Source: Alphaproteobacteria bacterium | GTDB taxonomy: Bacteria > Pseudomonadota > Alphaproteobacteria > Micropepsales > Micropepsaceae | DNA length: 64,000 bases | Direction: 5' to 3' | Assembly: GCA_003158585.1 (NCBI GenBank) | Contig: PMKE01000071.1 | Span: 10,003 to 74,002, forward strand | Shown here: one piece after another, positions 26,586 to 48,459 of the stretch | Layout: every line of letters starts with the position of its first letter | How positions within the stretch are numbered: the first letter of the stretch is position 1 | Notes under the pieces: model-generated | Told to the model about the DNA's origin: nothing | What the model saw: only the letters and a program-made list of their open reading frames with translations | Database searches by the model: none | Translations under genes and position numbers: made by a program

Positions 26586-27059
26586 TCAATGCAGATGCGT
26601 CAGCCGCCGGAACGACAGCGCCTCGGCGATGTGCGGACGCCTGACGTCGTCCGAACCTGCCAGATCGGCAATCGTACGCGCCACCCGCAGCATGCGATGA
26701 TAACCGCGCGCCGTCAGGCGCATCCGCTCGGCGGCTTCGGAAAGCAGCTTGGCACCCGCCGCGTCCGGTGTCGCGACGCGGCCGAGCAGTTCGCCGTCGG
26801 CTTCGGCATTGGTGCGCACGCCGTACCCCTCGAAGCGCCGGCGCTGGATATCGCGGGCCCGCTCCACGCGCCCCGCCACGTCGGCACTCGACTCGGCGGG
26901 CGGCGGCAGGCTGAGATCGGCTGCGGAGACGCCCGGCACTTCCACATGGATGTCGATGCGGTCGAACAAGGGTCCCGAGATTTTCGACTGGTACTCCTGG
27001 GCGCATTTGGGCGCGCGCCCGCAGGCCTGCGCCGGATCGCCGAGATAGCCGCAGCGGCA
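26586..27059 (-). pseudogene. comM: comM/yifB 3' fragment (C-terminal ~157 codons), separated from its 5' part by the island
   Basis: CRCGYLGDPAQACGRAPKCAQEYQSKISGPLFDRIDIHVEVP...ARGYHRMLRVARTIADLAG is the canonical ComM/YifB C-terminus. It is read in frame after the recombinase ORF. Confidence 0.85.
27054..27059. other. Left island junction (candidate att core)
   Basis: The minus-strand codons TGC-CGC here and TGT-CGT at 47413-47418 are the only sequence shared by the two comM junctions. Confidence 0.5.
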
Positions 27060-28553
27060 TGCATTTGTTGCCTTGCCATCGCGCTTTAGCGAAGCGGGAA
27101 AGTACAAGAGGTTGACGGCAACCTCTTCCTTTCCAACGATAATTTTGTCCGTGATGGTTTCGACCAGCTGGCGCTTCTCCGCTTGGCTGAATTCAGTCCA
27201 ACGAAGGGCCAAGTCTCCAGCATCGGAGACGGACGCCTGCTTCCCGGACACGGAAATTCGCATCACGTCGAGCTTCGCCTGGAGGCGTGGCAGTTCGTCC
27301 TCCAGCTGGTCCCGGCGTTCGGAAAGCGGCTTGTGACGGCGGCCGAAGTCGTCCTGCGACAGCTGGCCTCCGAGGTATAGCTGGTACAGCTGGTCGTCCT
27401 CTTGAGAGATTTTCTCAAGTTCGGCCTTGGCGGCTGCAACCAGCGCTTCATTCTCCCGGATGGCTTCATTCGCGGCTTCAAGATGGGCGGAGACCTGTTC
27501 GGGCGAAAGGAGGAACCGGGAAAGCTCGTCGTGATAAACGGCCTCAAGGTCGGGTATCGGTATCTTGTTCCGGCATTTGGGGCAGATGTACTTGGGAGAG
27601 TTGGCGCCCACGTACATCTTCGCGCCGCACTCACAATAGGCATAGCCGGTGAAGAGGTGGACGTTCTCGCGGGAAGGTTTTTTGTGCGAGACCCGCCGCT
27701 CGTCGAGAATGCGATTGCACTCTTCCCATAATTCCTCGCTCACGATTGCCTCGACGGGCGTTAGTACCCATTCACTCTCGGGCTTCAACTCCCACGACCT
27801 CGTGCGGTCGTTCGTGGTCGTATAGTTCTGGCGATACGTGCCCTTCGCGGACGGGTCGCGGAGAAGGCGGTCAACGGTCGTATCGGAGAACTTGGAGCCG
27901 TTCCGGGTGCGGTATCCGCGCTCGTTCAGGATGCGCGCGACCGCCTTCTTGCGACGGTGTTCGGCGAATAGCTCGTACATGAGAGCGCGGACAGCGCGTT
28001 CCTTGGGATGCGGCTGAAGCTTCTTGTCCTTCCACTGGTATCCGAAGGGAGCGGCCCCGCCTATCGGCCGCCCCATCTTCGCTCGGATCGGGACGGACGC
28101 GGCGACGCGCTCAGCAATCTCTTCGCGCTCCCACTGCGCCATTGCGGCAACGATGGTGAAGAAGAGGCGTCCAGCCGGGGAGCCGGTGTCGATTGCTTCT
28201 TGAAGGGAAATCATGTCCGCGTTCGCGTCCCGGAAGGCGTCCGCGAATTCGAGAAGCTCTCGCGTGTTCCGTGCCAAGCGGGCGATCTTCGAAAACACGA
28301 GCGCGGTTATGTGTCCCGAGCGTATGTCCACGAGCATACGTTTTGCCTCGGGATGCTCCATAACGGTTTTCCCGGAGACGGCCTCAAGGTGGTACACCTC
28401 GCGCACTTTCCACTCCCTAGCCTCCGCGTACATGCGAGCGCGTTTCTCGTGGACCTCGGGGCTTTCGCCCCGTGCCTGGTCTTCCGTGCTGACGCGTATC
28501 CAAATGCCAACGGCTTTCTGCCGGTTGGCGTTCTTTGATGGTGCGGATTTCAT
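27060..28553 (-). CDS. Large serine recombinase (island integrase); ORF runs on in frame into the comM 3' fragment
   Basis: Resolvase catalytic region VGIWIRVSTEDQ, recombinase domain, zinc ribbon YCECGAKMYVGANSPKYICPKCRNK, coiled coil. There is no stop before 26586. Confidence 0.9.
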
Positions 28554-28695
28554 TTTGATGACCCCGACGAAACGCCAACGAGTCTAGCGTCCATTCGAGG
28601 ACAGTCTCAACGGCGAAGACCGCCCCGGAAAGGGGGCGTTGTCGGCCGGATTGTCAGGTTCGGACGCCTTTCAGTCGCGCGCACGTGCCGGGACA

Positions 28696-29382
28696 ATGGC
28701 GCGGCCCGGATTCCGGCGCTTCATGGGGCGGCTCCCGAAAATTCCAGGCGCGAAGGAGATTGTGCGCACCGGCGGGGCGCTTCTCATTCACGGCGATTGC
28801 ATGGAAATGCTGCCGCACCTTGTGGACCGATACGATGCCATCATTTCCGACCCACCGTATGGCATCGGATACAACCCGTCGTCTCCCTCAGGAAGCAAGT
28901 GGAAGAACGTGAAGCGGATCGTGGGCGACGCGGAGCCGTTCGATCCGACGCCGCTTCTCGGGCACGTGAAGACCGTCGTTCTCTTCGGGGCAAACAACTA
29001 TGCGAACCGTCTGCCGAATTCGCGACGCTGGTTCGTATGGGACAAGCGGCCGAGCATGAAGAGCATGAGCTTCTCGGATTGCGAGCTGGCGTGGTGCTCG
29101 ACAGACGGCCCCGCGCGCATGATCCGCGTCGTGTGGAGCGGGGCGAACCGGGGCGACGAGCGCGGGCAGCACTGGCATCCGACGCAGAAGCCGATTGAGG
29201 TTATGCGGCAGATTATCGAGGCGACCACCAAGCCCGGCGATACAATCCTCGACCCCTACATGGGATCGGGCACGACCGGCATCGCAGCGCTGCGTACAGG
29301 GCGAAAATTCGTCGGCATTGAAATTGAAAGACGGTGGTTCAACGCGGCAGTAGTACGAGTGAGGAGAGGCACCACCACTTAA
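28696..29382 (+). CDS. Beta-class N6-adenine/N4-cytosine DNA methyltransferase (no partner nuclease seen)
   Basis: Motif IV ISDPPYGIGY precedes motif I DPYMGSGTTGIAA (beta-class order). The ORF opens at 28639; likely ATG starts are 28696 or 28723. Confidence 0.8.
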   Translation: MARPGFRRFMGRLPKIPGAKEIVRTGGALLIHGDCMEMLPHLVDRYDAIISDPPYGIGYNPSSPSGSKWKNVKRIVGDAEPFDPTPLLGHVKTVVLFGANNYANRLPNSRRWFVWDKRPSMKSMSFSDCELAWCSTDGPARMIRVVWSGANRGDERGQHWHPTQKPIEVMRQIIEATTKPGDTILDPYMGSGTTGIAALRTGRKFVGIEIERRWFNAAVVRVRRGTTT

Positions 29383-29421: not shown

Positions 29422-30840
29422 TCAATGCCCTTTCTGTGCTTGATCGACATTGCGCTGGGTGCCAGACACGGAATCTGACTGGAGGGAAAAATTCTCTATC
29501 TTGCGCCACTGACTGAACAGGCTCTCATCCGCCTTGGCGATGAAACTCACGACGTCTAGCGCCGCCAACAGTACGAATATAACGAATAAGGCCAAAAGCG
29601 GCACCTTTTCAGTATTCGTGCGCTTGTGCCATTCCCGATCCACCTTGTACGCCTGAAAGGCGATGAATATCGCTGACACGAGAAGGGCGGAGACCGATAT
29701 CAGAAATGCGGGCTTGTTAGTGCTCAATCTCATGAGCAAATACGAAACTACGAAGATGCCGCCAAATAGGCCGTAGTACGCGAAGGGAGTAACGGCAGCG
29801 AAGAACCATCCGCGTGGCCGCCCAACTTGAACTAACTTCTTCTCGGTTGCGGTTTCTATCGCATCGATATCACTAATCGACGCACGCGTCCGCGCTTCTC
29901 TGAGACCGTCATTCTCTTTCAACAAGTTCCCGATGTACTGGGCGTCCTCAGGTTCGATTCCAGCGTGAACGAATCCTCTCAGCAAATGGGCCAGTCGGAA
30001 GTTCTGGGGAATGGAAATGACGTTTTCGTACACAGCTTCGATCATCTCGTAGAAGAAGCGTCGTGCCTTTTCATCCAGTGATGGTCGAAGCATCGCAAAC
30101 GACTTAATTACGAATGCGGGCGTGTACACTTTGTAGCTGTCTGGCCGGTCATTCTTGACCTGAGCAAGCGTGTAGTTTCCGTTTTCTTGAGCGATCAGTT
30201 CAACGCATCGACGCATTCCATTCGTCACCGCTATCGGGTGACCTATGCTCAGCCGACGGGGCGTAAGTGCGTCAAGATAGATCGCAGCCTCGTATGGGTC
30301 GTAGTTATCGCGGCCTGCTTCGTCGTCAAGATGCCTTCGCGCCATTTCGGACGACTGACGAAGAACGGAGAACTCGTTTCCCCCTGCCTCAAGAATGTCC
30401 TTGCATCCATTCACATACAGCCAACGCTCAACGAGAGACGCCGTGCCTGGGGCGAACTTGTCAGAAATGCCCTGGATGCAGCAGTTCTTGAACTTCTCAT
30501 TGACTGTGAAGACAGTCCCGGGTGGAGTTATGAACCGCAAGTGAAAGAGGTAGGCAGAAAGTGCGCGAATGTAGTTTGCCAAATCAAGCGTGCTGGTATC
30601 GCGCGCTAGGACGTCAGCCATAATGAATTCAATCGGGCCTTTTAGCCTTTTCGGAAAATCGGCAGGTACTACAATTGCGGAGGACATAGCCGCGTCAATG
30701 AGCGCGAGAACGACCTCAGCGGTTACGGTGACCGACGGGCGGGTACCTGCCGAATCAAGCGTCCATCCCGCTGCGTCGGGACTGCAAATGCAGGTATCGA
30801 GCAGCTGATCGAAAATCTTTTGGGAAACGGTAGTGGGCAT
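29422..30840 (-). CDS. Hypothetical protein: ~340-aa helical soluble domain plus C-terminal 3-4 TM helices
   Basis: Clean 472-codon ORF in the low-G+C segment. C-terminal hydrophobic helices: FFAAVTPFAYYGLFGGIFVVSYLLM, AFLISVSALLVSAIFIAF, LLALFVIFVLLAALDVVSF. No family recognised. Confidence 0.6.
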   Translation of the reverse strand: MPTTVSQKIFDQLLDTCICSPDAAGWTLDSAGTRPSVTVTAEVVLALIDAAMSSAIVVPADFPKRLKGPIEFIMADVLARDTSTLDLANYIRALSAYLFHLRFITPPGTVFTVNEKFKNCCIQGISDKFAPGTASLVERWLYVNGCKDILEAGGNEFSVLRQSSEMARRHLDDEAGRDNYDPYEAAIYLDALTPRRLSIGHPIAVTNGMRRCVELIAQENGNYTLAQVKNDRPDSYKVYTPAFVIKSFAMLRPSLDEKARRFFYEMIEAVYENVISIPQNFRLAHLLRGFVHAGIEPEDAQYIGNLLKENDGLREARTRASISDIDAIETATEKKLVQVGRPRGWFFAAVTPFAYYGLFGGIFVVSYLLMRLSTNKPAFLISVSALLVSAIFIAFQAYKVDREWHKRTNTEKVPLLALFVIFVLLAALDVVSFIAKADESLFSQWRKIENFSLQSDSVSGTQRNVDQAQKGH

Positions 30841-32239: not shown

Positions 32240-32776
32240 TTAGTTTTCCAATCCTTGATTTGGGAACCAGAGCGAGATTTCGTAATTCGCTTCCAGGTAC
32301 GGCTCAGAGCCGGACGCCTTGTCCGACGCGTGAACTAAGTTGGCTGTGCCTCGCTTTTCCGAATTTGCTTTAGCAATGCTATCGGTTCCAAAATCTCCAC
32401 GAATAGTACCTGGAAGTGCATTTTGTGGATCGGTAGCCCCAACGAGCGCACGCACTCGCTTGATGGCGTTCTCTCCGCCCAATACCATTGGAAGAACATT
32501 CCCCGACATCATGTAATCACGATTCCAGCCGAGGACCATTCTACCATAAGCAGTGACGTCATTCCCGACGTCCGTTCCAGCAGCGCGGCTCTTTTCACCA
32601 ATGATCGGTGCCAGCTTTTCGACTTGGTAATGCCTGTTGAACGCCTCAGCACTAGGTTTGTCGAGGCGGGCAGCCAGGATCGTAAGTCCGGCTCGCTCAA
32701 ATCGATGGATAATATCGCCTGCCAAACCACGCTTGATCGTGTCGGGCTTCAGAATAACAAGCGTCTTCTCATACAT
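32240..32776 (-). CDS. Nucleoside diphosphate kinase-like protein (divergent, extended)
   Basis: TLVILKPDTIKRGLAGDIIHRFERAGL and the catalytic-His motif NLVHASD. Longer than canonical NDK, with an internal insertion and a C-terminal tail. Confidence 0.75.
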   Translation of the reverse strand: MYEKTLVILKPDTIKRGLAGDIIHRFERAGLTILAARLDKPSAEAFNRHYQVEKLAPIIGEKSRAAGTDVGNDVTAYGRMVLGWNRDYMMSGNVLPMVLGGENAIKRVRALVGATDPQNALPGTIRGDFGTDSIAKANSEKRGTANLVHASDKASGSEPYLEANYEISLWFPNQGLEN

Positions 32777-32900
32777 TGAGGATTCCTCATGCTCTTTGAA
32801 AAAATGGGTTTTGTCGGGAAGCGGATACCGCGAACGAGCAAAAATCGCAACAGAGGCAGACCGTTAGGTCACATGGCTTGCCTCTCGCGCCAATGGCTGC

Positions 32901-33812
32901 TCAGAAATGCCGCATTAACCGGGCAACGTGAATTTTCAGGTACTCAAAGACTACGTACGTCCACATTTCTTCATTTAGATAGAATGAGTTACGCTCGTCT
33001 AGAGCGTTCGGCGCACCACGCCGAATGACAAGGGGTGACCAATCAGCAACAGCTTTGAACGTCAATGCGGCTCTTCGCAGGTGGAAAGGAGCTGTCACAA
33101 TTATCACGCGCCGTGGCAGAGAGCTGCCACTAGCACGAAGCACAGCAACCGAATTGACGACATTCTCGGGTGTGTTTCTTGCCTCCCTTTCAAGAACTAA
33201 GTCCGCCTCCGGCACGCCTGCTTGACGGGCGATTTCGGCGTAATAGTCGGCTTCGGCTCCGTCGAAGTGCCGCAGATAGCTTGCCTGCTTCCCGCTAAAC
33301 AGGATTTTGCCACAGAAGCCATTCTTGTAGAGCTTTATTGCCTCGTATACCCGCTGTTCGCCAGGCCCGCCGAATACAAAAACCAAATCTGCCGGGCTGA
33401 GGGGGTCCTCGCCAGATAGATAGTCCCAAACCTCTTCGAGTGCGCGTTTCTGTTCGTCACTTAGGCTAGCGCGAATCAGAAGGAAAGCCCTGTGGACTAT
33501 TGCGGTAACCGCGCGTGAATCGATTCCCTGAGGTGATGCGAAGCGGTAGGGATCGTCTGCAATACCTAAAGCTTCCAGCGCTCGGGTTAAGTGGAATAAT
33601 TCGAGCGTCTCAAGAGGACGCTTTTCGGAAATCTCGGCAGCGATCCGTTCAAGATAATCACGTTCGGTCGCCAAATGGGGATGGTATTTACCGGTCATCA
33701 TTTGCCTCCGGTATAGCCCGAAGTGGGAGACGTGGTCCAAGAAGCCACCTAAACACTCAAGAACACGTTCACGAGAGAGGTTGCAGTGCTTCGGCCGAAA
33801 ACTAGCCGACAA
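32901..33812 (-). CDS. DUF218/YdcF-family protein with N-terminal extension
   Basis: DLVFVFGGPGEQRV, ILFSGK, ARNTPENV and VIIVTAPFHLRRA match the YdcF/SanA-type DUF218 pattern. The start may instead be the MMTGKY ATG near 33701. Confidence 0.6.
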   Translation of the reverse strand: MSASFRPKHCNLSRERVLECLGGFLDHVSHFGLYRRQMMTGKYHPHLATERDYLERIAAEISEKRPLETLELFHLTRALEALGIADDPYRFASPQGIDSRAVTAIVHRAFLLIRASLSDEQKRALEEVWDYLSGEDPLSPADLVFVFGGPGEQRVYEAIKLYKNGFCGKILFSGKQASYLRHFDGAEADYYAEIARQAGVPEADLVLEREARNTPENVVNSVAVLRASGSSLPRRVIIVTAPFHLRRAALTFKAVADWSPLVIRRGAPNALDERNSFYLNEEMWTYVVFEYLKIHVARLMRHF

Positions 33813-33856
33813 GCAAAATACATTGTACCTTCTATTGTGGTCAGTGCATCCGAATT

Positions 33857-34576
33857 TTGCAGAGAGGTCCCATGTTTCCCTTCATCAAAATCTGTGGCGT
33901 CCAGTCACAAGCCGAAGCAAAACTCTGCGTTTCAGCGGGCGTCACGGCGGTCGGCTGTCTCGTTGGGCTGACGCACAAGGCGGAAGACAAGGTTACACCT
34001 GACGTAGCCGCGGGTATCTTCGCATCTCTTCCGAAGGAGGTGCTCAGCGTGCTCGTGACCCATCTCACAGAGGTGGACGATCTGGTTGAGTATGCAAATC
34101 TGACCAAGCCGCGTGCCATTCAGGTACACGGTGACGCGAGCCTTCAAACTGTCGAGCGCCTCGCGTCTCGCTTGCCGAACGTTGTGTTGATTAAGGCTGT
34201 GCATGTGCTCGATCAGGGCGCGGTTGAAGTGGCCCGAGAGTGGGACAACGCGCCAATATCCGCAATTTTATTAGACAGTCGCACAGCCGACCGCCTGGGC
34301 GGGACAGGGCAAACACACGATTGGGGAATCAGTGCGGCGATTGTCCGCGCATCCAAGCATCCGGTAATTCTCGCCGGTGGACTGAGTCCAGCGAATGTCG
34401 GAGACGCGATCCGGGCGGTTTGTCCCAAAGGAGTTGACACCAACAGCGGTGTCGAAGTTGTAGGTGGTGCAAAAGACCCTCTCAAAGTGAGAGCATTTGT
34501 TCAAACGGCACGCGACGAATTCGCGCGCTGTGATTCCGTGGGCGACGTATGTCAGCCGCCAAACACTGCGAAATAA
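33857..34576 (+). CDS. Phosphoribosylanthranilate isomerase (TrpF)-family protein, island-borne
   Basis: IKICGV, LLDSRTADRLGGTGQTHDW, ILAGGLSPANV and GVDTNSGVE. ATG 33872 is an alternative start. Confidence 0.75.
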   Translation: MQRGPMFPFIKICGVQSQAEAKLCVSAGVTAVGCLVGLTHKAEDKVTPDVAAGIFASLPKEVLSVLVTHLTEVDDLVEYANLTKPRAIQVHGDASLQTVERLASRLPNVVLIKAVHVLDQGAVEVAREWDNAPISAILLDSRTADRLGGTGQTHDWGISAAIVRASKHPVILAGGLSPANVGDAIRAVCPKGVDTNSGVEVVGGAKDPLKVRAFVQTARDEFARCDSVGDVCQPPNTAK

Positions 34577-35715
34577 AACCGCTGGAGAAGCGGACCTACC
34601 TGTTTAGGGAACAACTCATTTAGTCCGGTCACGGCGGCGAGAATGGCCGCCGCAATTTGCCATAGGCGATTCGTCACCCGACTGATGCGCTGAAAGACCA
34701 GTGCGCGAAGTGACATATATTCTTGCTCAATGCCGAAATTATCCAACGAGGCTTCGTCCTCGATATTGCCGATGGTTGTGCGATCCGATTTGACAACGCG
34801 GCAGATAATCGGCCACGAAATCTCCCTGAACTCTTCTATAAATTCACGCTGATGCGAGACGTTTTCTCCGACTATCGCTAAGCCGCATGCCAAAGCATCT
34901 CTTGTGCCGGTGCTTGTCGCACGATCATGAATGGTTTCCTCAAATCTCCGAACGGTACCATCTGAGAAGATGAGCTTTATCCCAATGTCGTGAGCGGTCC
35001 CGTCAGCGTTTTGCTCGAATTTATCGAACACTCCGATGACTGAGACGCATAGCTCCCCGAGCATGGAATGGAAATCGGTTACACTTCTTTCTGCAAACGA
35101 ATTCTCCAGAGCTTTGAAAATGCGCGCGTCTGTTGCCAGCGCCCGTACTGGGACGTGAGACGCGCGTTGGGCCTCCGCGAACCGGAGCACCTTTGTTTCA
35201 GATACACTTGCTATCGTGATTGGTTTGCCTACGCGGTTGCATAGCTCTAACGTCTGAGACAACTGGTCTGCGGAGAGATTGCAGTCGATGATTACGGATG
35301 ATGACCGCCTTATAAGCCGACGAATTCGCCTTAGTGGTAGGTCAATTCTATCGACGCCAGTTGAAGTAACGGCAGATACATAATTGCCTTCATGTTTGTT
35401 AGCGACAAAGGCACCCGCGTATGACCGGCGATCACGAGAGATGGACTCTGTCGAGACACCCTCGCGGCGCAAGCGGGAGACGATCCACTTCTCTACCACA
35501 CTCCCGGCTCGGACAGCCGTCCAGATCCCAACCTTGTATCCGAGGCGGGCAAGATTGACGCTGACGTTATAGGCGCTTCCACCAAGTCGAACCTCAATGT
35601 GCCCGACCTTATCGAGATGTTTTGGATCGTCATGTGATATTCCTAAAATATCGACATGGGCCGATCCGATAATCGCAAAACGCGCCCTTTTTCTTTTTGT
35701 CCCCGTTGCGCGCAT
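34552..35715 (-). CDS. PfkB/ribokinase-like kinase with hydrophobic C-terminal extension
   Basis: FAIIGSAHVDILG, RLGGSAYNVSVNLARLG (GG motif), and a degenerate anion-hole motif STGTRDALACGLA. C-terminal LWQIAAAILAAVTGL. The ORF opens at 35787. Confidence 0.65.
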   Translation of the reverse strand: MRATGTKRKRARFAIIGSAHVDILGISHDDPKHLDKVGHIEVRLGGSAYNVSVNLARLGYKVGIWTAVRAGSVVEKWIVSRLRREGVSTESISRDRRSYAGAFVANKHEGNYVSAVTSTGVDRIDLPLRRIRRLIRRSSSVIIDCNLSADQLSQTLELCNRVGKPITIASVSETKVLRFAEAQRASHVPVRALATDARIFKALENSFAERSVTDFHSMLGELCVSVIGVFDKFEQNADGTAHDIGIKLIFSDGTVRRFEETIHDRATSTGTRDALACGLAIVGENVSHQREFIEEFREISWPIICRVVKSDRTTIGNIEDEASLDNFGIEQEYMSLRALVFQRISRVTNRLWQIAAAILAAVTGLNELFPKQVGPLLQRFYFAVFGG

Positions 35716-35946
35716 TGGTCCCCCCGACACCAATACTGAACAGCCTGAACGTTGCGCTTCTTCCTCGCCGCTGTTTGTAAGGCGCACGCACCGCTAGGCG
35801 GCTCCCCATGGCGATATTGTCCGGCTAGTTGCCGAGACGCAAGTATGTGATCGCGACCTTACCTCATCTGCAATGTCGCTGCGGTGCGCTTCGAACGAAA
35901 ATTCAGTGGGCTACCAGTCACTTATCTCTGATACTCCTGTTGAGAG

Positions 35947-37090: not shown

Positions 37091-37300
37091 ATGAAAGACA
37101 ATCAACTTTCCCCCGGCGACCTCTTCATTGATCGGTACATGCCCGGAGCGAGCGCCGAAGAGCGCGAGGAAGCGGAGAAGAATCTAGAACGCTTCGTCGC
37201 CGCCCTTGTTCGCATCGACAAGCGGCTCGAATGGGAGAAGCGGAATGCGATTCGCACGAATCCCGATTCGGAGGTAGATTCCATTAGCACCCGCATATGA
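37091..37300 (+). CDS. Small acidic hypothetical protein upstream of recombinase 2
   Basis: 69 codons. The stop overlaps the recombinase ATG (ATGA), which suggests translational coupling. Confidence 0.4.
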   Translation: MKDNQLSPGDLFIDRYMPGASAEEREEAEKNLERFVAALVRIDKRLEWEKRNAIRTNPDSEVDSISTRI

Positions 37301-38847
37301 AGCAATACTTCGCGTACATCCGCGTCTCGACTGCCAAGCAGGGAGAACACGGATCGTCATTGCAGGAACAGCGAAGCGCCATTGAGGCGTATGCGTCTCG
37401 GAATAGCCTCTCGATAGCTGAATGGTTTGAGGAGCGCGAAACTGCAGCGAAGCAGGGCCGTGCGGTGTTTTCCCGGATGCTTGCCAAGCTGGAGAAAGGC
37501 GACGCGCAGGGCGTCGTTATACACAAAATCGACCGGAGCGCGCGAAACTTGAAAGATTGGGCGAACCTGGGCGACCTTATCGACCGCGGTATCGACGTGC
37601 AGTTTGTCCACGACAGTTTCGACATGCGCTCCCGTGGCGGACGCCTCTCCGCCGATATCCAGGCCGTCGTTGCCGCCGACTATATCCGCAACCTTCGCGA
37701 TGAAGTGAAGAAGGGCTTCTATGGCCGCCTAAAACAGGGCCTTTATCCCTTGCCAGCGCCCATTGGCTATCTCGACCAGGGCAAGGGAAAGCTAAAGATT
37801 CCCGATCCAGTACGCGCGCCTTTGGTGAAAGAGGCATTCGAGCTGTACGCGACCGGCACCGCATCGTTGCGGGTACTTCAGAAGGAAATGAAGCGGCGCG
37901 GATTGAGGACTAAGGCTGGCAAGCCGCTCTCGCTGAATTCCCTCGACCAGATGCTCCACTGCCCGTTCTATGTCGGCCTTATCCGCATCATGAAAACGGG
38001 CGAGACGTTCGAAGGAAAGCACGAACCCATCGTCTTCAAGTCAACTTTCGACCGCGTGCAGGCCATCATGCGGGGCAAGACGGTATCGCGGCAGGTGAAG
38101 CATGATTTCACCTTCCGTAGAATCGTCCGGTGCGGGACGTGCGGCCGTCACCTCGTCGGAGAGCGTCAGAAGGGCCGGTACGTGTACTATCGCTGCCAAG
38201 TGCCGGACTGCCGGGGAACCATCGTCCGGGAGAAGGACCTCGACCACGCGGTACAAACCGCGCTCTCCCTTCTCCGAAGCGATCCGGCGGAGCAGCGATG
38301 GATTGAAGCCAAAGTGACAAATCTCACCAAGCAGGACGCCGAAGGGCTGGAACGGCTCAAGGCCTCCATTCAGCTACGCCTTGCGAAATCCGACGTGCGG
38401 CTGTCCCGGCTCACGGACGCATACCTTGACCGCGATATCGACAGAGAGATTTTCGAGCACCGGAAAAGTGTCGTTTTGGAGGAGCGGGCCAACCTCCGGG
38501 ACGAATTTTCTCGACTGTCCGCGAACGACCTGTCCGTGCACAGGGCACTCAGAAACCTCGAACTCGGAAATACGGCTCTGTCCGGCTACAAATCGGGAAT
38601 TCCCGCCGAACAGCGGGAAATCATCGAAAGCGTGACCTCGAACTTCACGCTACACGGAAAAAACATAGTGATTGCGCTACGTTCTCCGTTTAGAGGGTTA
38701 GCAAACTGGCGTGAATCGCAAATCGGTGCGCCGCATCGGGACACGGCTCAAGAACGCGCCGCGCAAATCCTCGATATCGCGCTGAGGGACGCCAAGGTGT
38801 CAGGTTCCGCCCCCGTTTCGCAGGACGGGCACAAACTCGCGACATGA
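37297..38847 (+). CDS. Second large serine recombinase
   Basis: FAYIRVSTAKQ catalytic serine region, recombinase domain, zinc ribbon RCGTCGRHLVGERQKGRYVYYRCQVPDCRG, coiled-coil tail. Confidence 0.9.
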   Translation: MKQYFAYIRVSTAKQGEHGSSLQEQRSAIEAYASRNSLSIAEWFEERETAAKQGRAVFSRMLAKLEKGDAQGVVIHKIDRSARNLKDWANLGDLIDRGIDVQFVHDSFDMRSRGGRLSADIQAVVAADYIRNLRDEVKKGFYGRLKQGLYPLPAPIGYLDQGKGKLKIPDPVRAPLVKEAFELYATGTASLRVLQKEMKRRGLRTKAGKPLSLNSLDQMLHCPFYVGLIRIMKTGETFEGKHEPIVFKSTFDRVQAIMRGKTVSRQVKHDFTFRRIVRCGTCGRHLVGERQKGRYVYYRCQVPDCRGTIVREKDLDHAVQTALSLLRSDPAEQRWIEAKVTNLTKQDAEGLERLKASIQLRLAKSDVRLSRLTDAYLDRDIDREIFEHRKSVVLEERANLRDEFSRLSANDLSVHRALRNLELGNTALSGYKSGIPAEQREIIESVTSNFTLHGKNIVIALRSPFRGLANWRESQIGAPHRDTAQERAAQILDIALRDAKVSGSAPVSQDGHKLAT

Positions 38848-39306: not shown

Positions 39307-39774
39307 CTACTTCTTTGAACCAGCCCCCATCTTCTTGATAAGCAAGTCAGCAATGTACGGCACACCCTTAGTGAGGGGAACGTAACCGACCGTTGGAGGC
39401 ATGCCTTTCAAGTCCGTGTCGTCCACCCGCACGGGCAGGATGTACTCTTTGCCCTGCTCTTCTAGCGCCCTAGCCTGTGCGCTTTGGCGCTCGTGATTTG
39501 TCCACATCCTCTCCGCATATTCCCTTGAAACGAACATGACGCAGAAGCGAGCGCGCTTGCGGTAAATTTCGTCGAATGTATCAACGAGGTTTTTACCCCA
39601 AAGAAATTCGGGATAGAAATCGTCATAGAACACAGCAATTCCGGCATTCCGCAGAAGCTTGGCCAGCTCTTCCGCTTGCATCCGCTCCGTGCCAGCGAAG
39701 GAAATTGCTATGTCGAAAGTCTGTGGATCAGCGGCTGGCTTCTTGACGGTCGCGCCTCCGATCCGTCTCCGCAC
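39307..39774 (-). CDS. TIR-domain protein (ThsB-like, stand-alone)
   Basis: FDIAISFAGTERMQAEELAKLLRNAGIAVFYDDF, FCVMFVSREYAERMWTNHERQSA (conserved W...E) and ILPVRVDD. Confidence 0.8.
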   Translation of the reverse strand: MRRRIGGATVKKPAADPQTFDIAISFAGTERMQAEELAKLLRNAGIAVFYDDFYPEFLWGKNLVDTFDEIYRKRARFCVMFVSREYAERMWTNHERQSAQARALEEQGKEYILPVRVDDTDLKGMPPTVGYVPLTKGVPYIADLLIKKMGAGSKK

Positions 39775-40678: not shown

Positions 40679-42463
40679 ATGCGCGGAATGACGAAACTGG
40701 CCCCGAAATCTCAACTGACGGCGACAAGATCACAGAGCGTTGCGACAAACGGTCTTCGGCTCGTTCGACAGCTGACGCTTGCAGGACTTGATCCGCTGGA
40801 ATCGGCAGTGGAAATCGCGTCCGCCGCCGGAATCGAGGCGCGGGGTGCGGTATTCACAAAGCGCGAGGTCGTCGAGTTCATTCTCGATCTGGTCGGATAC
40901 ACGACTGATCGCGACCTTACGCACCTTCGGCTCCTTGAGCCTGCCTTCGGAAACGGGGATTTTCTTCTCGTCGCTGCGGAGCGGCTTCTTGCCTCATATC
41001 GCACCCATCCCGGCAGTAAAACGAGTCAGGGCGGAGCAACTGCGCTTCGGAACAGTATTCGGGCCGTTGAACTACATCGCGGTACTTTCGATGCGACACG
41101 TGAGAAGCTCAAGGCGCTTCTCACTGCGAACAACGTGGGAGACGAGACATCGGAAGAACTCCTGGCCGCTTGGCTTCAGTGTGGAGACTTCCTTCTAGCC
41201 GATATTGACCACACCTTTCATGTGGTCGTCGGCAATCCGCCCTATGTCCGTCAAGAACTCATTGCAGACGCGCTCATCAACGAATATCGCAGGCGTTACC
41301 AGACCATATTCGACCGGGCGGACATATACGTTCCATTTATCGAGCGCTCTCTATCTTTGCTTGAGCCGAAAGGAACGCTCGGTTTCATTTGCGCCGACCG
41401 TTGGATGAAGAATCGATATGGTGGGCCACTCCGGCGATTCGTCGCTGACAGATATCGACTCAAATATCATGTCGATATGACGGACACTCCGGCATTCCAC
41501 AGCGACGTTATCGCGTACCCTGCAATTTCGATCATTTGCCACGAGAAATCCGGTCCCACTCGTGTCGCATACCGGCCGGAAATCGAGGCGGCGTCGCTCA
41601 ATACCCTTGCGCGAGAATTAAAGGGTAAGAAGTTGTCAGCGCGGGTCACCGAATATCCGACAATCACTTCGGGCGACGCTCCTTGGATACTTGAGGGTAA
41701 CGGACGTGGGAAGATCGTGCGGGCGCTTGAAGCGCGACTGCCGACGCTTGAGGAAGCCGGATGCATGGTCGGTATCGGTGTTGCCACGGGAGCCGACCAA
41801 GTTTTCATTCAGCCCCTCGACGAATTTAACCTTGAACATGATCGCACGCTCCCGCTTGTCATGACGCGAGACATTGAAACGGGGACGATCAAGTGGCGCG
41901 GATACGGCGTGCTCAATCCGTTTGGAGAGGATGGAAAGCTCGTTTCGCTTCGCGATTATCCGAAGCTCGCTGCATACCTCGAAACACATGGAGCGGCGAT
42001 CAAGGCGCGGCACGTGTCTAAGAAGAACCCGAACTCGTGGTATCGGACGATTGACCGGATTTATCCCGAACTCACACACCGGCCGAAACTACTCATTCCC
42101 GATATCAAGGGAACAGCGCATATCGTCTATGATAGTGGTCGGTTCTATCCGCATCACAATCTCTACTACATCACTTCCGAGACGTGGGACCTTCACGCGC
42201 TGCGGGCGATACTGCGCTCGGGCGTCGCGTGGCTCTTCGTTTCGACATATGCCACGAAGATGCGCGGCGGATACCTACGATTTCAAGCGCAATATCTTCG
42301 TCGCATCCGCGTGCCGCATTGGAAAGACGTTCCGGCAAAAGTGCGCGAGGAATTGGTGCAAGCGGGCAAATCAAATGATGCCAATCGCTGCAACGACGCA
42401 GTTGCGCACCTATATGGCTTGGGCGAGTCGGAACGGTACGCTTTAATGGGGGGTGAAAGCTGA
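40679..42463 (+). CDS. Gamma-class N6-adenine DNA methyltransferase (Eco57I/TaqI-like; M.XhoI/M.PaeR7I-type)
   Basis: [16 protein letters not shown], motif [13 protein letters not shown], motif [11 protein letters not shown], plus a C-terminal target-recognition domain. ATG 40688 is an alternative start. Confidence 0.85.
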
Positions 42464-42466
42464 TCT

Positions 42467-43210
42467 ATGGCGCTCAATCTTGCAAACTACGACGAAAAGT
42501 CCCGCGAGGCCGTGAGGGCGTTTTGGGGAAACCGCGAAGCGGCGAGGAAAAAACAAATCGAGCTTGGCAAAAGCGACCAGGGCGAGCGGGCAGGCGTCAC
42601 GGGTGGCAAGAACATGGACGGGTTCGCCGCTCTCGTTCTCGACCTCGTCGCGGCGAACGGACTCGCTGACGCGCAAATCATGCGGGAAAGGCGTGCACTG
42701 ACACTTCCCGGTTATTTCCGTCCTACGAAGCTCTGGGATTTGCTCGTAATCCACGGGGGACAGCTGCTTGCTGCGCTCGAATTCAAGTCGCAAGTCGGGC
42801 CGTCGTTCGGAAATAATTTCAATAATCGCGCGGAGGAATCCCTCGGAACGGCCGTCGATTTCTGGACAGCCTACCGGGAGGGGGCGTTCGGGGAAATTCC
42901 AAAGCCGTTCGTCGGCTGGATGATACTCGTCGAGGACGAACCGGCGTCGCGGGCAAAAGTGAAAGAAACTTCGCCGAATTTTCCGGTATTTGAGGAGTTC
43001 AAAAACGTCTCGTATGCAGAGCGGTACAATATCCTCTGCAAAAAGCTCGTTAAGGAACAGCACTACACCGCCGCATCGGTGCTCCTCTCGCCGCGCGATG
43101 CGATCAACTCGGGGATGTACAGTGAGATGTCAGAGCTTACGGACCTCAAGACATTCGTGACCGGCTTCGCAGGGCACATCGCGGCGGCAGCAGCGCGGAA
43201 GAGCGCCTAG
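42467..43210 (+). CDS. XhoI/PaeR7I-family type II restriction endonuclease
   Basis: [26 protein letters not shown] and [23 protein letters not shown] match my recollection of the RE_XhoI family. Starts 3 nt after the methyltransferase stop. Confidence 0.75.
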
Positions 43211-44161: not shown

Positions 44162-46792
44162 GTGGCGATCAACCTCTTTAGCTGGCTTCTTCCGGGAACC
44201 AAGGAAAAGGAACTCCGGGACACGCGCTCGTCGTGGGAACGAACGGAGCGGGCGTGGAAGGCGTCGCCTCTCGCTTTCTTCGACCCCGCGGACCTCGCGG
44301 ACGAAGTCGTGCGCGAGACGATGCAAGACGCGGAGCGCATGCCCGCCGTGCCCGTTGTCGCGGCTCTGTGCGAAGCGACGGAAGAACTCGTCCGCGCCGA
44401 ATCCGTAGGCGATATAGAACCGTTGTGGAGCGTCATAGAAGAGAATGTCGAAGCCGCAGTCGGCTTCCGTGAAATGGTCGGCCGCCGCTCGGTTTGGGCG
44501 ACGAACTTCAAGACCATGCGCGGTGTATGGGCCAAGCTTTTGTCCGGCCCATATCGCGAATTCGTGAAAGCGCTTCCCGAATCTTGCTTTGGGCAATGGG
44601 ATGAGAAGGGAGAGTTTGAGGTCCCGCTCGTCGACCTTCTCGACAATCCGGCAGAACTAATCGAGAAGCTTATTTCGTTCCCGTTCACGGACGAGGCGCT
44701 TAATCTCAAGCTCTTCGAGGAATATCGCGGGCGTCTCCGTAGTCGCATCGCGGACGCATCCGGCATGTCGTTAGCCGACATGGCGAAGGGTGAGCGCGGC
44801 ATCGTTCCGCCCACCGCGCAGAAGAACAAGAGCGCGCGAGAACTCTTGGACCTGTATTTAGGCGGAACTCCGTTTGCGGAACTCTTCGCACTCCCGGTCC
44901 CATTCTCCGTGCCCGAGCACGTCCGTTTTGAACATTGCCACGTCATCGGCGGCACGGGGCACGGCAAGACGCAGCTGCTTCAGAAGATGATTTATGCCGA
45001 CTTGGTGCAGTCGCAATACGACCGCCGAAGCGTGGTCGTTATCGATAGCCAGGGCGACATGATCCAAAAGCTCTCCCGTCTGGAGCTTTTCTCTCCATAC
45101 GTGCCCGGAGGGTTGGGAGACCGGCTCGTCCTCATTGATCCGTCGGACGTGTTGCATCCGTTTGCCTTGAACCTCTTTGACGCGCACATGGACAGGGTGA
45201 AGGACTATGACGCGGCAGACAAAGAACGCGTGCTGAACGGTGTCGTGGAGCTATACGAGACCTTCTTCGACGCCCTCTTGGGAGCCGAACTCACGGCCCG
45301 TCAGGACGTGGTGTTCCGATACATCGCCCGCCTCATGCTCACCATTCCTGGCGCGACGATCCACACTCTCATGCAGATCATGGAGAACGGAAAGGCGTTC
45401 AAGCCGCACATGGACCGGCTGGAAGGGTCGGGACGGCGTTTCTTCGAGACCGAGTTCTTCTCTCCTTCGTTTGCCCCCACGAAGAGTCAAATCCTGAAAC
45501 GGCTCTGGGGCGTCCTCTCCACTCCGGCCTTCGACCGCATGTTCTCGCAGCAAGAGAACAAGCTCGACCTCTTCGATGCGTTGAACAGCGGGAAGATCAT
45601 CCTCGTGAACACGGCCAAGGACGTGCTCAAGGAGGAAGGGAGCCGTGTGTTCGGCCGCTTCTTCATCGCCATGCTGGCACAAGCGGCTCTGGAGCGCTCC
45701 ACGATACGCGATAAGGACCGCACGCCCGCGTTTGTGTACGTGGACGAAGCGCACGAGTATTTCGACGACCGGATAGAGGCAATTCTGAACCAAGCACGGA
45801 AATTCAAAGTTGGCATAACACTCGCGCATCAGACGCTGGACCAGCTATCGACCCGCCTTCGCTCGGTCATACTCGCAGACACCAGCATCAAATGCGCTGG
45901 GGGCGTGTCCGCCAAAGATGCACGCGCCATCGCGGACGAACTCCATACGACGCCCGAGTTCATCGACGGAATGCGGCGGAAAGGCCCCAAGACGGAGTTC
46001 GCTGTATGGGTCAAAAACGTCACGCCTCACGCCGTCCGGCTCTCCGTTCCTCTCGGCTTCCTTGAGCGGCAGTACACGCTCGACGAGGAGGGATACGATC
46101 TTCTCATCGAGAGAAACCGGGAACGATACAGCGGGACGGTTGCGAGCGCGCCCGTTGTCGGAGAGCCGATCCCGGAAGAGACGCCGAAGCCGACCCCAAC
46201 GCCCCGCGTCGAACCGCCACCCAAAACGGATAGCGTTCCGCTCCCGCGTCCTCCGCGCGATATCTCCGCGCCGCGCGAGCCGGGCAAGGGAGGGCCGAAG
46301 CACACATACCTCCAATCACTCGTGAAGGAATTGGCGGAGCAACAGGGATTGAAGGCGACGATTGAAGCGCCGGTTCCCGGAGGCGGACAGGTTGACGTGC
46401 TTATCGAGCGGGACGGGGTGCTGGCGGCAATCGAAGTATCGGTCACGACGCCCGTTGAATACGAACGGCAGAATTTGGAGAAATGCCTCCGCGCCGGATA
46501 CCCGAAGGTCGCGGTCGTTCTCGCCAAGTCGAAAACGCAGCAAAGCGCGTACCGCGCGGCGCTGTATGAATCTGTCCCCGATACTGACCGCGAGCGCGTC
46601 TCGTACCTCACGCCCGAAGAGATACCCGACTATATCGCCACTCTCGCGCCGCCACCGCCGCGCTCAGAGCGGATTGTCCGGGGATACCGCGTGAAGGGTG
46701 CGGTCTCTCCCGTGACGGCGGAGGATGCGAAGGCGAGGCGCGACGCGGTCGCACGCCTTATCGCAAAGTCGCTGTCTGGACAGACGGATTAG
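44162..46792 (+). CDS. TraD/VirD4/HerA-like P-loop ATPase with Pro-rich linker and C-terminal PD-(D/E)xK-like domain
   Basis: Walker A VIGGTGHGKTQ, Walker B FVYVDEAHEYF, ITLAHQTLDQL. Linker PEETPKPTPTPRVEPPPK. C-terminal GGGQVDVLIERDGVLAAIEVSVT. Confidence 0.7.
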   Translation: MAINLFSWLLPGTKEKELRDTRSSWERTERAWKASPLAFFDPADLADEVVRETMQDAERMPAVPVVAALCEATEELVRAESVGDIEPLWSVIEENVEAAVGFREMVGRRSVWATNFKTMRGVWAKLLSGPYREFVKALPESCFGQWDEKGEFEVPLVDLLDNPAELIEKLISFPFTDEALNLKLFEEYRGRLRSRIADASGMSLADMAKGERGIVPPTAQKNKSARELLDLYLGGTPFAELFALPVPFSVPEHVRFEHCHVIGGTGHGKTQLLQKMIYADLVQSQYDRRSVVVIDSQGDMIQKLSRLELFSPYVPGGLGDRLVLIDPSDVLHPFALNLFDAHMDRVKDYDAADKERVLNGVVELYETFFDALLGAELTARQDVVFRYIARLMLTIPGATIHTLMQIMENGKAFKPHMDRLEGSGRRFFETEFFSPSFAPTKSQILKRLWGVLSTPAFDRMFSQQENKLDLFDALNSGKIILVNTAKDVLKEEGSRVFGRFFIAMLAQAALERSTIRDKDRTPAFVYVDEAHEYFDDRIEAILNQARKFKVGITLAHQTLDQLSTRLRSVILADTSIKCAGGVSAKDARAIADELHTTPEFIDGMRRKGPKTEFAVWVKNVTPHAVRLSVPLGFLERQYTLDEEGYDLLIERNRERYSGTVASAPVVGEPIPEETPKPTPTPRVEPPPKTDSVPLPRPPRDISAPREPGKGGPKHTYLQSLVKELAEQQGLKATIEAPVPGGGQVDVLIERDGVLAAIEVSVTTPVEYERQNLEKCLRAGYPKVAVVLAKSKTQQSAYRAALYESVPDTDRERVSYLTPEEIPDYIATLAPPPPRSERIVRGYRVKGAVSPVTAEDAKARRDAVARLIAKSLSGQTD

Positions 46793-46961
46793 GCGGAGGC
46801 ATTCCCCTTATCGGCTTGCAGTATCCGCAGCGGGGCCACCCGTCGCACACAAGCCAGTACCGCCGCATGAAGAGGGTCCGCAGGGATCGGCCGATCCGCA
46901 CTTGAAGCGGCTTGCCGCACTCGGGGCAGACCTTGTTCTCGTTCGCAGCCTCAAGCGGCAT
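46758..46961 (-). CDS. Small topoisomerase-type C4 zinc-ribbon protein
   Basis: CPECGKPLQVRIGR...WLVCDGWPRCGYCK. ATG 46961 overlaps the end of the tandem-HTH ORF by 11 nt. Confidence 0.55.
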   Translation of the reverse strand: MPLEAANENKVCPECGKPLQVRIGRSLRTLFMRRYWLVCDGWPRCGYCKPIRGMPPPNPSVQTATLR

Positions 46962-47412
46962 CGCGGCCCCCTTCCGGCTCGCTTTCCATCGCGAGGAACC
47001 GGGACACCTTGTCCCCTGACAGGCGCGGCTTCCAGTCTCCACGTTCCCAATGGGAAAGCGTGCCCTCGTCAACGCCGAGGAGCTTCGCGGTTGTCTTGAT
47101 GGACAGACCGAGCCGCAACCGCTGCCGGGAGATGCGCTCTGCCAGGGTGGCAGGGGCCGGGAGGGGGTCATAGCCGAGGAAGCGAAAGATCGCCGGGAAC
47201 TGCTTAGCCGTGGGCTTCACACGGTCCTTTTCCCAGAGGAGGACCGTCTCGGGCGCTGTGAGGAGTTGTAACGCCGCCTGGGGTTGGGTCAGACCCAGCT
47301 GAAGGCGACGCCTAAGCAGATGTTCGCCCAAGGTTTTGGGCGTCTCGGCATAGGGCTTCGGACGACGCCATCGCAGGGAGACCGGGACGTGGGGGTGCAG
47401 GAAGGCAACGCG
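46951..47412 (-). CDS. Tandem XRE-type HTH protein, currently fused in frame to the comM 5' fragment
   Basis: Two HTH units, LRRRLQLGLTQPQAALQLLTAPETVLLWEK and ISRQRLRLGLSIKTTAKLLGVDEGTLSHWER. No internal ATG; an in-frame TTG at 47331 is a possible own start. Confidence 0.6.
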   Translation of the reverse strand, partial: RVAFLHPHVPVSLRWRRPKPYAETPKTLGEHLLRRRLQLGLTQPQAALQLLTAPETVLLWEKDRVKPTAKQFPAIFRFLGYDPLPAPATLAERISRQRLRLGLSIKTTAKLLGVDEGTLSHWERGDWKPRLSGDKVSRFLAMESEPEGGRDAA

Positions 47413-47418
47413 ACGACA
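47413..47418. other. Right island junction (candidate att core)
   Basis: Minus-strand TGT-CGT directly after ...GCG ATG AAT CCC (AMNP). Counterpart of 27054-27059. Confidence 0.5.
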
Positions 47419-48459
47419 GGGATTCATCGCCGCCACCAGCTGGAAGCGCGCCGGATAGCGCACATGGGCGTTGGCGCGCGCCACGATGGCCTCGCCCGTC
47501 TCGATCGGCTGGCGCAGGGAATCGAGCACCGCACGCTGGAACTCGGGCAGCTCGTCGAGGAACAGCACACCCAGATGAGCCAACGACACTTCGCCCGGCT
47601 TGACCTTCAGCCCGCCGCCGACCAGCGCCGCCATCGAGGCCGAATGATGCGGCGAGCGGAACGGGCGCCGCCGCGAAATCGTGCCGTCCGGCAATTCGCC
47701 CGCCAGCGACTGCACCATCGAGATTTCCAGCGCCTCGCGCGCGTCGAGCGGCGGCAACAGGCCGGGCAGGCGCTGCGCCAGCATCGACTTGCCCGCGCCC
47801 GGCGGCCCGATCATCAGCATGTTGTGGCCTCCCGCCGCGGCGATCTCCAGCGCCCGCTTGGCGGTCTCCTGGCCCTTGACGTCCTTGAGGTCGGGAATGG
47901 AGGTGCGGTCGTCGGCCAGCTTCGCCGCCGGGCGATTCAGCACCTGCACGCCGCGCATGTGATTGACGAGAGCGATCAGCGAGGGTGCGGCGATGATCTC
48001 CACGTCGCCCGCCCAGGCCGCTTCCGAGCCGCAGGCCGCCGGGCAGATGAGGCCGCGATGTTGCTCCGAGGCGGCGAGTGCGGCAGGCAGCACGCCCGCC
48101 ACTGCGATCACCTGCGCGTCGAGCGAGAGTTCGCCCAGCGCCACGTAGTGCTCCATCTCGCTAGCGGGCAAGACGCCCATCGCCGCCAACAGGCCGAGCG
48201 CGATGGGGAGGTCATAGTGGCTTCCCTCTTTCGGCAGGTCGGCCGGGGCGAGGTTCACCGTGACGCGCTGCCAGGGCATGGACAGGCCGATGGCGGTAAG
48301 CGCCACGCGCACCCGCTCTTTCGACTCCGCCACCGCCTTGTCCGCCAGGCCGACCAGGGTGAACTGGCCGCTGCCGCCGTCGGCGATGTGAACCTGCACA
48401 TCGACTTCGCGTGCTTCGATGCCCTGGAAGGCGACGGTATAGATGCGTGCGACGGTCAT
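47413..48459 (-). pseudogene. comM: comM/yifB 5' fragment (N-terminal ~348 codons)
   Basis: MTVARIYTVAFQGIEAREVDVQVH, Walker A MIGPPGAGKSMLA, Walker B GVLFLDELPEF. Ends at RFQLVAAMNPC, then switches to island sequence. Confidence 0.85.

Follow-up and report, generated by a model that had tools for sequence, protein, structure and literature searches.

What does a mobile element encode when the site at which it recombines lies within the reading frame of its own recombinase? The question is raised by an island in a 64,000-nucleotide stretch of DNA (contig PMKE01000071.1 of assembly GCA_003158585.1, hereafter the window) from an alphaproteobacterium of the family Micropepsaceae. The island interrupts comM and carries a large serine recombinase (LSR) gene at one end and a segment encoding two helix-turn-helix (HTH) domains at the other. 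The original prediction, made from the letters of the window, was that both attachment (att) junctions lie inside open reading frames (ORFs), with the integration state swapping protein C-termini. We find that the recombinase and the tandem-HTH segment occur in relatives as one uninterrupted gene. We consider it likely that LSR, linker and tandem HTH make up a single protein family that is split by its own attP, with a tail that is a working part of the free-form enzyme and whose detachment alters the abilities of the recombinase or its control. The parts of the island on which this reading rests are listed here by window coordinates.

27058-47416, minus strand: integrated island, 20,359 bp between two TG crossover dinucleotides, supported by GC content and by the collinearity of its circularised form.

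27057-28553, minus strand: LSR core, residues 1-499, with catalytic domain, recombinase domain, four-Cys zinc ribbon and coiled coil (Pfam, AlphaFold2, Foldseek).

26586-27056, minus strand: comM 3' fragment (codons 349-504 and stop; Pfam), which in the integrated state supplies the recombinase ORF with its C-terminal tail.

47416-48459, minus strand: comM 5' fragment (codons 1-348, comprising the ChlI N-domain and most of the AAA+ module; Pfam).

46951-47415, minus strand: detached C-terminal module, about 28 linker residues and two Cro/C1-type HTH domains (154 codons and stop; Pfam, AlphaFold2, Foldseek).

27034-27083, minus strand: attR-type junction, consisting of the P half-site AAGGCAAC (27067-27074), 7 nt, TG (27058-27059) and the comM B' arm CCGCTGCGGCTATC.

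47393-47442, minus strand: attL-type junction, consisting of the comM B arm GGCGATGAATCCC, TG (47417-47418), 7 nt and the P' half-site GTTGCCTT (47402-47409).

On the recombinase side, the minus strand reads ...GGC AAG GCA ACA AAT GCA TGC CGC TGC GGC TAT..., with the Cys codon at 27057-27059, and on the comM side it reads ...GCG ATG AAT CCC TGT CGT CGC GTT GCC TTC..., with the Cys codon at 47416-47418. The two Cys codons are in the same phase, in keeping with the claim that the junction cores (TGC-CGC and TGT-CGT) share one frame. The read-through of the recombinase into comM is also borne out: the 655-residue ORF at 26586-28553 (minus strand) consists of LSR residues 1-499 followed in frame by the last 156 comM codons, with Pfam matches to Resolvase at residues 17-162 (PF00239, E=4.8e-30), Recombinase at 184-286 (PF07508) and, in its C-terminal part, Mg_chelatase at 484-545 and Mg_chelatase_C at 554-649. 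At the other end of the island, the comM 5' fragment continues in frame into the tandem HTH, as had been claimed, in a 502-residue ORF at 46951-48459 (minus strand) that holds comM codons 1-348 and then 154 residues of tandem XRE-type HTH; ChlI and Mg_chelatase matches reach residue 362, and HTH_3, HTH_31 and HTH_19 match at 378-485. Splicing the two ORFs in silico at the common Cys codon yields a recombinase-HTH fusion across attP of 653 residues (499 from the recombinase and 154 from the HTH tail), where about 650 had been predicted for an excised circle, together with a restored ComM of 504 residues that recovers the 156-residue ComM-derived tail. Once the island is removed, the comM ORF shows the ComM/YifB layout of ChlI N-domain, Mg_chelatase AAA+ module and Mg_chelatase_C. 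The Pfam Mg_chelatase model extends 15 residues onto the recombinase side of the junction (27012-27059, LSR residues 484-499), at profile positions that partly coincide with the match of the comM 5' fragment. The match crosses the junction because attP and attB are alike around their centres (AAT-nCn-TGy-CGy, encoding N-x-C-R in both).

The island ends together hold a perfect inverted repeat, AAGGCAAC and GTTGCCTT, each half of which lies exactly 7 nt from the TG of a Cys codon. Rejoined, the ends read GGCAAC-AAATGCA-TG-TCGTCGC-GTTGCC inside the 653-residue LSR-linker-HTH ORF, a predicted site with the layout of an LSR-type attP and a 2-bp crossover at its centre. The K-A-T and V-A-F that flank the junction in the protein are the half-sites read as codons. 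The restored target gives the predicted attB, AATCCCTG(C/T)CG(C/T)TGCGGC, and empty attB sites occur in related peat-metagenome populations, where contigs follow the comM 3' sequence to 27059 and then continue with comM 5' sequence, so that the break falls at the predicted dinucleotide. The island has a GC content of 56.6%, against 64.3-64.7% in its flanks, and when circularised it aligns collinearly with both the 18.4-kb contig L002 and L006.

When the in-silico fusion was used as query, three classes of protein were recovered: recombinases joined to Mg_chelatase_C (about 650 residues, like that in the window), recombinases joined to HTH_3/HTH_31 (635-707 residues, with 94-98% query coverage), and tail-less recombinases of about 500-512 residues. 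The predicted fusion thus exists as an uninterrupted natural gene: 14 of the 80 species-level loci carry it, and both LSR and HTH Pfam domains are found in 43 of the best 120 protein clusters. The closest intact fusion in those 120 clusters, P0002, has 646 residues and is 73% identical at 98% coverage. In the fusion proteins, a conserved linker (...GKAT(N/R/K)P(C/H/Q)|RRVAF...) is followed by both HTH domains. The corresponding attP pattern is GGCAAC-N7-(TG or CA)-N7-GTTGCC, a palindrome of about 44 bp within the linker-coding DNA; all 12 half-site bases are present in 14 of the 19 natural intact loci examined and in the in-silico attP of the window, usually with more palindromic flank. The neighbours of the intact fusion genes (L002, L006-L008, L003-L005) are likewise those that mark the ends of the window island: on one side lies a divergent N6_N4 methyltransferase gene and on the other, directly after the fusion gene in all of these loci, a convergent gene for a HerA/TrwB-like ATPase of 876-917 residues. 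Their counterparts in the window are as follows.

28639-29382, plus strand: N6_N4 DNA methyltransferase, divergent from the recombinase (Pfam), at the same position in L002 and L006-L008.

44162-46792, plus strand: HerA/TrwB-like ATPase of 876 residues, convergent on the HTH tail (Pfam; PADLOC mad8/HerA), a core gene of the family.

The enzyme itself is an LSR by its predicted catalytic domain, its recombinase domain, zinc ribbon and coiled coil, and its att sites. The catalytic domain contains the serine motif RVSTEDQ, with IRVSTEDQ invariant in 40 homologues. In the homologue P0002, four conserved cysteines (positions 308, 310, 325 and 328) mark the zinc ribbon. An AlphaFold2 model of P0002, built from a 40-sequence alignment, shows a confident LSR core with a long helical hairpin (residues 352-455) as the coiled coil. 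Foldseek matches the catalytic domain to TP901-1 (template modelling (TM) score 0.83-0.86) and the core to the SPbeta, phiC31, Bxb1 and LI integrases, with E=1e-16 to 1e-12 for the full-length model against the SPbeta, phiC31 and Bxb1 integrase-att complexes.

A promoter-like sequence precedes the recombinase gene.

28581-28610, minus strand: putative sigma-70-like promoter of the recombinase, TTGAGA-N18-TAGACT, kept in the window, L002, L006 and L012.

Since this -35/-10-like pair is conserved, the truncated recombinase gene is probably still transcribed after integration. When an operator-like palindrome was sought in the promoter region, the alignment showed the conserved -35/-10-like pair only. 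Metatranscriptome contigs 100% identical to the window cross the junction between the recombinase and the comM 3' fragment (26949-27176 at depth 17, and 27000-27300 in another dataset); these RNA-derived contigs carry no strand information and may include DNA carry-over. Other pieces of the island are represented at 100% identity (30478-30628 and 33081-33285), the remainder of the recombinase gene is not covered, and none of the RNA-derived contigs covers the junction between the comM 5' fragment and the HTH tail.

How general is the split? We scanned related loci in one genome per species with a full-length fusion alignment as the query, which recovered at least 514 related loci in many phyla, including Alpha-, Beta- and Gammaproteobacteria, Acidobacteriota, Bacteroidota, Planctomycetota, Chloroflexota, Patescibacteria and Gemmatimonadota; Caulobacter, Brevundimonas and Sphingobium isolates are among the carriers. 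Most integrated relatives were read at the recombinase end of the element. The best 80 of these loci were assigned to classes under a strict rule.

Recombinase running into antisense comM 5' sequence: 50 of 80 loci, with central CA in all.

Recombinase running into sense comM 3' sequence, the orientation of the window: 7 of 80 loci, with central TG in all.

Intact fusion: 14 of 80 loci, with a central dinucleotide that is mostly CA.

Unclassified: 9 of 80 loci, several of them truncated contigs of the antisense or intact kind.

All 57 split relatives are split at the same comM Cys codon, and nearly all have GGCAAC or a near variant 7 nt upstream. Because CA accompanies the antisense orientation in 50 of 50 loci and TG the sense orientation in 7 of 7, the central dinucleotide appears, in silico, to set the orientation of insertion. 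In antisense insertions the recombinase gains just 7-13 antisense comM codons and the HTH tail is not joined to ComM; the tail-less homologues correspondingly end in ...KATxPH GFIAAT(S/N)WKRAG*, a reverse-complement reading of comM codons 335-347. The antisense comM 5' half follows directly after the recombinase in L009 and L092. Contig SRR33452767_267866 (L091, L092) contains both junctions of an antisense insertion, about 31 kb apart, reading ...GAAGCCGCAGCGG-CA-TGATCGC-GTTGCCTT... into the HTH tail and AAGGCAAC-GAAACCT-CA-TGGATTGGCC... out of the recombinase. At L085 (2400-3911 and 5463-6515), a complete comM lies just upstream of the recombinase, which itself runs into an antisense comM 5' half downstream; this could be an element that carries a replacement comM, or a duplication.

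In-frame fusion to ComM is found in the window, in 6 of the 7 sense loci and in P0121 and P0178, whereas L088 has its sense insertion in another phase, and its recombinase continues into comM out of frame. An in-frame ComM tail and a ComM::HTH chimera arise only where a TG centre and an attP phase matching the comM Cys codon coincide, and the ComM-derived tails are predicted to be a by-product of orientation and codon phase. The claim that integration swaps C-termini holds for the window, but its conserved part is the loss of the HTH tail, seen in every split locus; ComM-derived tails are not conserved, with 50 of the 57 split loci antisense and L088 out of frame. A selected LSR-ComM fusion is ruled out by the antisense majority together with the one out-of-frame sense relative, L088.

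The phase in which attP is translated varies as well. The 71 loci with a recognisable half-site divide into 34 with the centre in codon phase 0, 34 with it in phase 2 and 3 with it in phase 1, such that the palindrome reads K-A-T-x-P-H|R-R-V-A-F in one lineage and R-Q-R-N-x|x-A-L-P-F in another; intact fusions are found in all three phases. Rather than ending at a stop ahead of attP, the recombinase ORF is open to the crossover centre in 70 of the 71, and none of the loci that could be classified has a stop ahead of the centre. Both conditions named in advance as refuting the original prediction, a stop before attP in homologues and an HTH gene never fused, turned out in its favour. This openness despite variable phase implies that the palindrome is kept as a DNA site and that there is separate selection for recombinase and HTH in one frame. 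Chance read-through owing to high GC content is ruled out by the geometry of the palindrome and by the orientation rule, which holds in 57 of 57 loci.

The module that is detached is a folded one. Pfam recognises HTH_3 (PF01381, E=1.3e-11) and HTH_31 (PF13560, E=1.9e-9) in the tail, and the AlphaFold2 model shows two four-helix HTH units with a predicted local distance difference test (pLDDT) score of about 90 each. Foldseek matches the tail to P22 c2, 434 Cro, ImmR and HipB, with TM scores of 0.75-0.80 to the first three. The tail is thus modelled as an XRE/Cro-C1 HTH fold, with a predicted role in DNA binding. The att-encoded linker (P0002 residues 486-511) has pLDDT <50 and is disordered. 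In many relatives, above all those with a Patescibacteria label, the linker contains long Pro/Ser/Thr/Gly-rich insertions immediately before the att stretch (KAT motif; L018, L019, L022, L031, L040, L054, L077, L090), which fit a flexible tether of variable length. The window tail is homologous to the C-termini of intact fusions and 83% identical to the tail of P0121, and the detached tails of integrated copies are intact, in frame and conserved.

The tandem HTH might instead be an ordinary regulator gene that abuts attP and has its own start, with the open frame a high-GC accident. Many stand-alone XRE family annotations of 120-200 residues are homologous to the tail, and some relatives have GTG or ATG at a conserved V-P position early in the tail, both of which would suit such a gene. 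However, neither a conserved independent start codon nor a conserved Shine-Dalgarno sequence for the tail was found in the tail homologues and the window. In the window tail, no Shine-Dalgarno-like sequence precedes any start-like codon up to and including the beginning of the first HTH domain; an in-frame GTG at tail codon 66 does have one, at a position inside that domain. Of the possible starts named in the original prediction, the in-frame TTG at 47331 is present, but the segment is not free of ATG, since one in-frame ATG lies near its end, at tail codon 143 (46989). The ORFs of orphan tails start at inconsistent places that are often host-derived; in P0131 and P0210 they start in antisense comM, and sequence upstream of the tail in antisense cases sometimes contains a stop three codons before it, sometimes an ATG (P0131) or a long open frame (P0210). 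Moreover, the LSR-HTH frame is open in at least 14 species-level loci, across three phases, and in the 43 clusters with intact fusions. Together these observations make a separate regulator very improbable. Clustered at 50%, the tail homologues are mostly short orphans and multi-HTH proteins, and P0246, P0174, P0230 and P0173 have other upstream partners (for example, a PD40/TolB-like repeat protein) or at least three HTH pairs; from these sequences, the tail family probably has other target genes and longer tails.

We infer that the tail is a selected part of the enzyme because the ORF is open over attP in three frames, which would be needless for a separate gene. In the proposed cycle, the attP-bearing form, free or otherwise unsplit, encodes a single protein of about 650 residues with an LSR core, a disordered linker and a tandem HTH. 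Exchange between attP and attB at the TG of the Cys codon in the comM motif AAMNPC|RCG would carry the terminal ~465 nt of the recombinase gene over to the opposite island end, and the integrated element can then encode only a tail-less core ending in host sequence. A sense insertion in matching phase would place 156 ComM codons on the recombinase and create a ComM(1-348)::HTH chimera, and an antisense insertion would place 7-13 antisense codons on the recombinase and leave an orphan tail. The full gene would be rebuilt by excision only. Judged from sequence, integration always detaches the HTH tail, and the state of the DNA determines which proteins can be encoded. Dependence of the C-terminal tail on integration state, as first proposed, is supported by the intact fusions and the split loci, and it would have a functional effect. 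By analogy with IntP and IntX of Mx8, the tail most likely serves DNA binding in the integration phase or self-regulation, with the prophage enzyme differing from the incoming one. Candidate roles are assistance in attB or attP capture, self-repression and control of direction.

Several observations weigh against this reading of a gene split and restored by its own attP. Several intact fusions lie deep in contigs of 101-594 kb, and gene callers list the orphan tails as XRE genes of 120-200 residues, whose translation is possible. In assembled contigs of source-type metagenomes, no attP or circular form of the window element was found, and the in-silico attP had 0 exact matches when metagenome contigs were scanned for it; the same source-type contigs contain integrated junctions and, in relatives, empty attB. 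Many loci of the census come from metagenome-assembled genomes, and the taxonomic labels of short contigs may be wrong. The intact fusions inside long contigs imply that the full-length gene is also a stable resident form and not only a transient product of excision. These elements are probably held there by another recombinase, for which the second LSR of the island (described below) is perhaps a candidate.

What would loss of the tail do to the enzyme? One answer is that it sets the direction of recombination, with the full-length LSR-HTH protein integrating only (attP x attB) and the tail-less core being competent for excision, either without a recombination directionality factor (RDF) or with an altered response to one. 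In favour of this answer, each protein form goes strictly with one DNA state, the island yielded no obvious RDF, and engineered integrase-RDF fusions are reported to show that an appended C-terminal domain can reverse the direction of an LSR (PMC5737554). However, canonical LSR cores already integrate one-way and need a separate RDF for excision. An excision-competent prophage form under a strong-looking promoter would also be unstable, yet split loci outnumber intact ones by 57 to 14. RDFs are small, diverse and without a common signature; neither Pfam nor PADLOC picked one out among the ORFs of the island, and one may have been missed. We therefore regard it as unlikely that the detachable tail is a commitment or direction device whose gene states make an integration-only enzyme on the one hand and an excision-competent or RDF-altered enzyme on the other.

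A second answer is that the tail is needed for activity or stability, so that integration inactivates the recombinase and fixes the island in place, as has been proposed for integrases of the SSV1 type. Integrated forms dominate the relatives, and there is an archaeal precedent for such a lock (PMC8371274). In this case, however, the entire catalytic and att-binding core survives integration, and the intact, in-frame and conserved state of the detached tails fits repeated cycles of excision better than decay. One-way lock-in thus seems quite unlikely, a little more so than a direction device. The preferred reading remains an LSR-linker-HTH enzyme whose tail works in the free form and whose detachment alters its ability or control.

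To our knowledge, canonical large serine integrases have attP outside the int ORF. In the full-text literature searched, no serine integrase was described as having attP within its own ORF or as bearing an HTH module that can be detached, and in curated phage and plasmid collections nothing was nearer than 24-31% identity, with the tail covered by none. The canonical LSRs (phiC31, Bxb1, SPbeta SprA, A118/LI, TP901-1) resemble the window enzyme in domain order, fold, short palindromic attP and 2-bp polarity centre, but they are without a C-terminal XRE HTH module, and their identity to it (17-38%) is confined to the core. An attP within an integrase gene is known for tyrosine enzymes; the present case belongs to a different superfamily, exchanges a whole domain and inserts in either orientation. 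In phage Mx8, attP lies inside the integrase gene, and integration gives the gene a new 3' end and alters the prophage form (IntP and IntX; PMC6070905). The window enzyme likewise has the attP core within the integrase ORF and differing prophage and free C-termini. In contrast to Mx8, where a tyrosine recombinase has a short C-terminal stretch swapped, here an LSR loses a folded two-domain module (~125 residues plus linker) and inserts in either orientation, set by the 2-bp centre. The window enzyme is thus predicted to work like the Mx8 IntP/IntX class but is no member of it, being a serine and not a tyrosine recombinase. The SSV1-type ('suicidal') integrases of Sulfolobales viruses and plasmids also have attP inside the integrase gene, a type that a review calls exclusively archaeal (PMC8371274). 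There the tyrosine enzyme itself is cut in two, whereas here all LSR core domains stay in residues 1-499 and an accessory module is lost. In the engineered integrase-RDF fusions, a C-terminal add-on reportedly changes which att pairs recombine (PMC5737554); those fusions are artificial and use a known RDF, whereas here a tandem Cro/C1-type HTH is added, and recombination itself creates and dissolves the fusion. Finally, Wolbachia prophage WO of the sr1WO group uses a serine recombinase to enter an Mg-chelatase (comM/chlI-like) gene; the prophage has the recombinase at one of its ends and, at the opposite end, XRE-type HTH genes (PMC9203015, PMC5062602). Compared by published descriptions, prophage WO is a tailed phage of 40-65 kb, whereas the window element is an island without phage structural genes, and the sr1WO papers report no ORF crossing attP.

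The remaining genes of the island include a second recombinase and cargo that looks defence-related.

37297-38847, plus strand: second LSR, 516 residues (Pfam Resolvase, Recombinase and Zn_ribbon_recom), with homologues in the same relative place in L002, L006 and L012.

39307-39774 (minus strand), 40679-43210 (plus strand), 28639-29382 (plus strand) and 32240-35787: regions of defence-like cargo.

This cargo comprises a TIR-domain protein (PADLOC PDC-S66/ThsB-like), an Eco57I-type methyltransferase with an XhoI-family endonuclease, and the N6_N4 methyltransferase; further genes are NDK-like, DUF218, PRAI and PfkB-like. Pfam recognised no phage structural genes among the island ORFs. The second LSR lies at 1-1428 in L002 and at 2084-3589 in L006, and its C-terminus differs between the window and L006 right after ...NWR(E/K)SQxGAPxR. 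Contig L002 starts and ends in sequence resembling the 3' end of the second LSR gene. From these sequences, the 3' end of the second LSR gene may likewise contain the att site of that enzyme, and the element would then have two alternative integrases. A relative of the second LSR (at least 45% identity) adjoins a second comM breakpoint near codon 212 in L009/L010 (11940-13649) and in L014, placing two LSR families in tandem within one comM.

Large serine integrases are prized for a direction of recombination that is taken to depend on nothing but the att sites, the coiled coil and a separate RDF. The loci described here form a large natural family in which recombination itself adds or removes a folded, predicted DNA-binding module of the enzyme, in which one 30-bp palindrome is conserved as DNA while it is translated in any of three frames, and in which a change of the central dinucleotide appears by itself enough, in nature, to reverse the orientation in which a gene is entered. 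There are consequences for annotation: the 655-residue 'recombinase', the 502-residue 'ATP-binding protein' and the numerous small 'XRE regulators' found where islands end arise from the junctions and are not native genes. comM is a competence gene, and insertions in it may also block the curing of elements by transformation of the host. The family raises the question of whether an extra C-terminal DNA-binding domain can be required by an LSR, or hold it back, in just one direction. If the tail were indeed a directionality device, the DNA rearrangement would reprogram its own catalyst without a dedicated regulator, and these elements would amount to a one-gene switch that occurs naturally and resets itself, in a serine integrase family that hits the same comM codon across many phyla.

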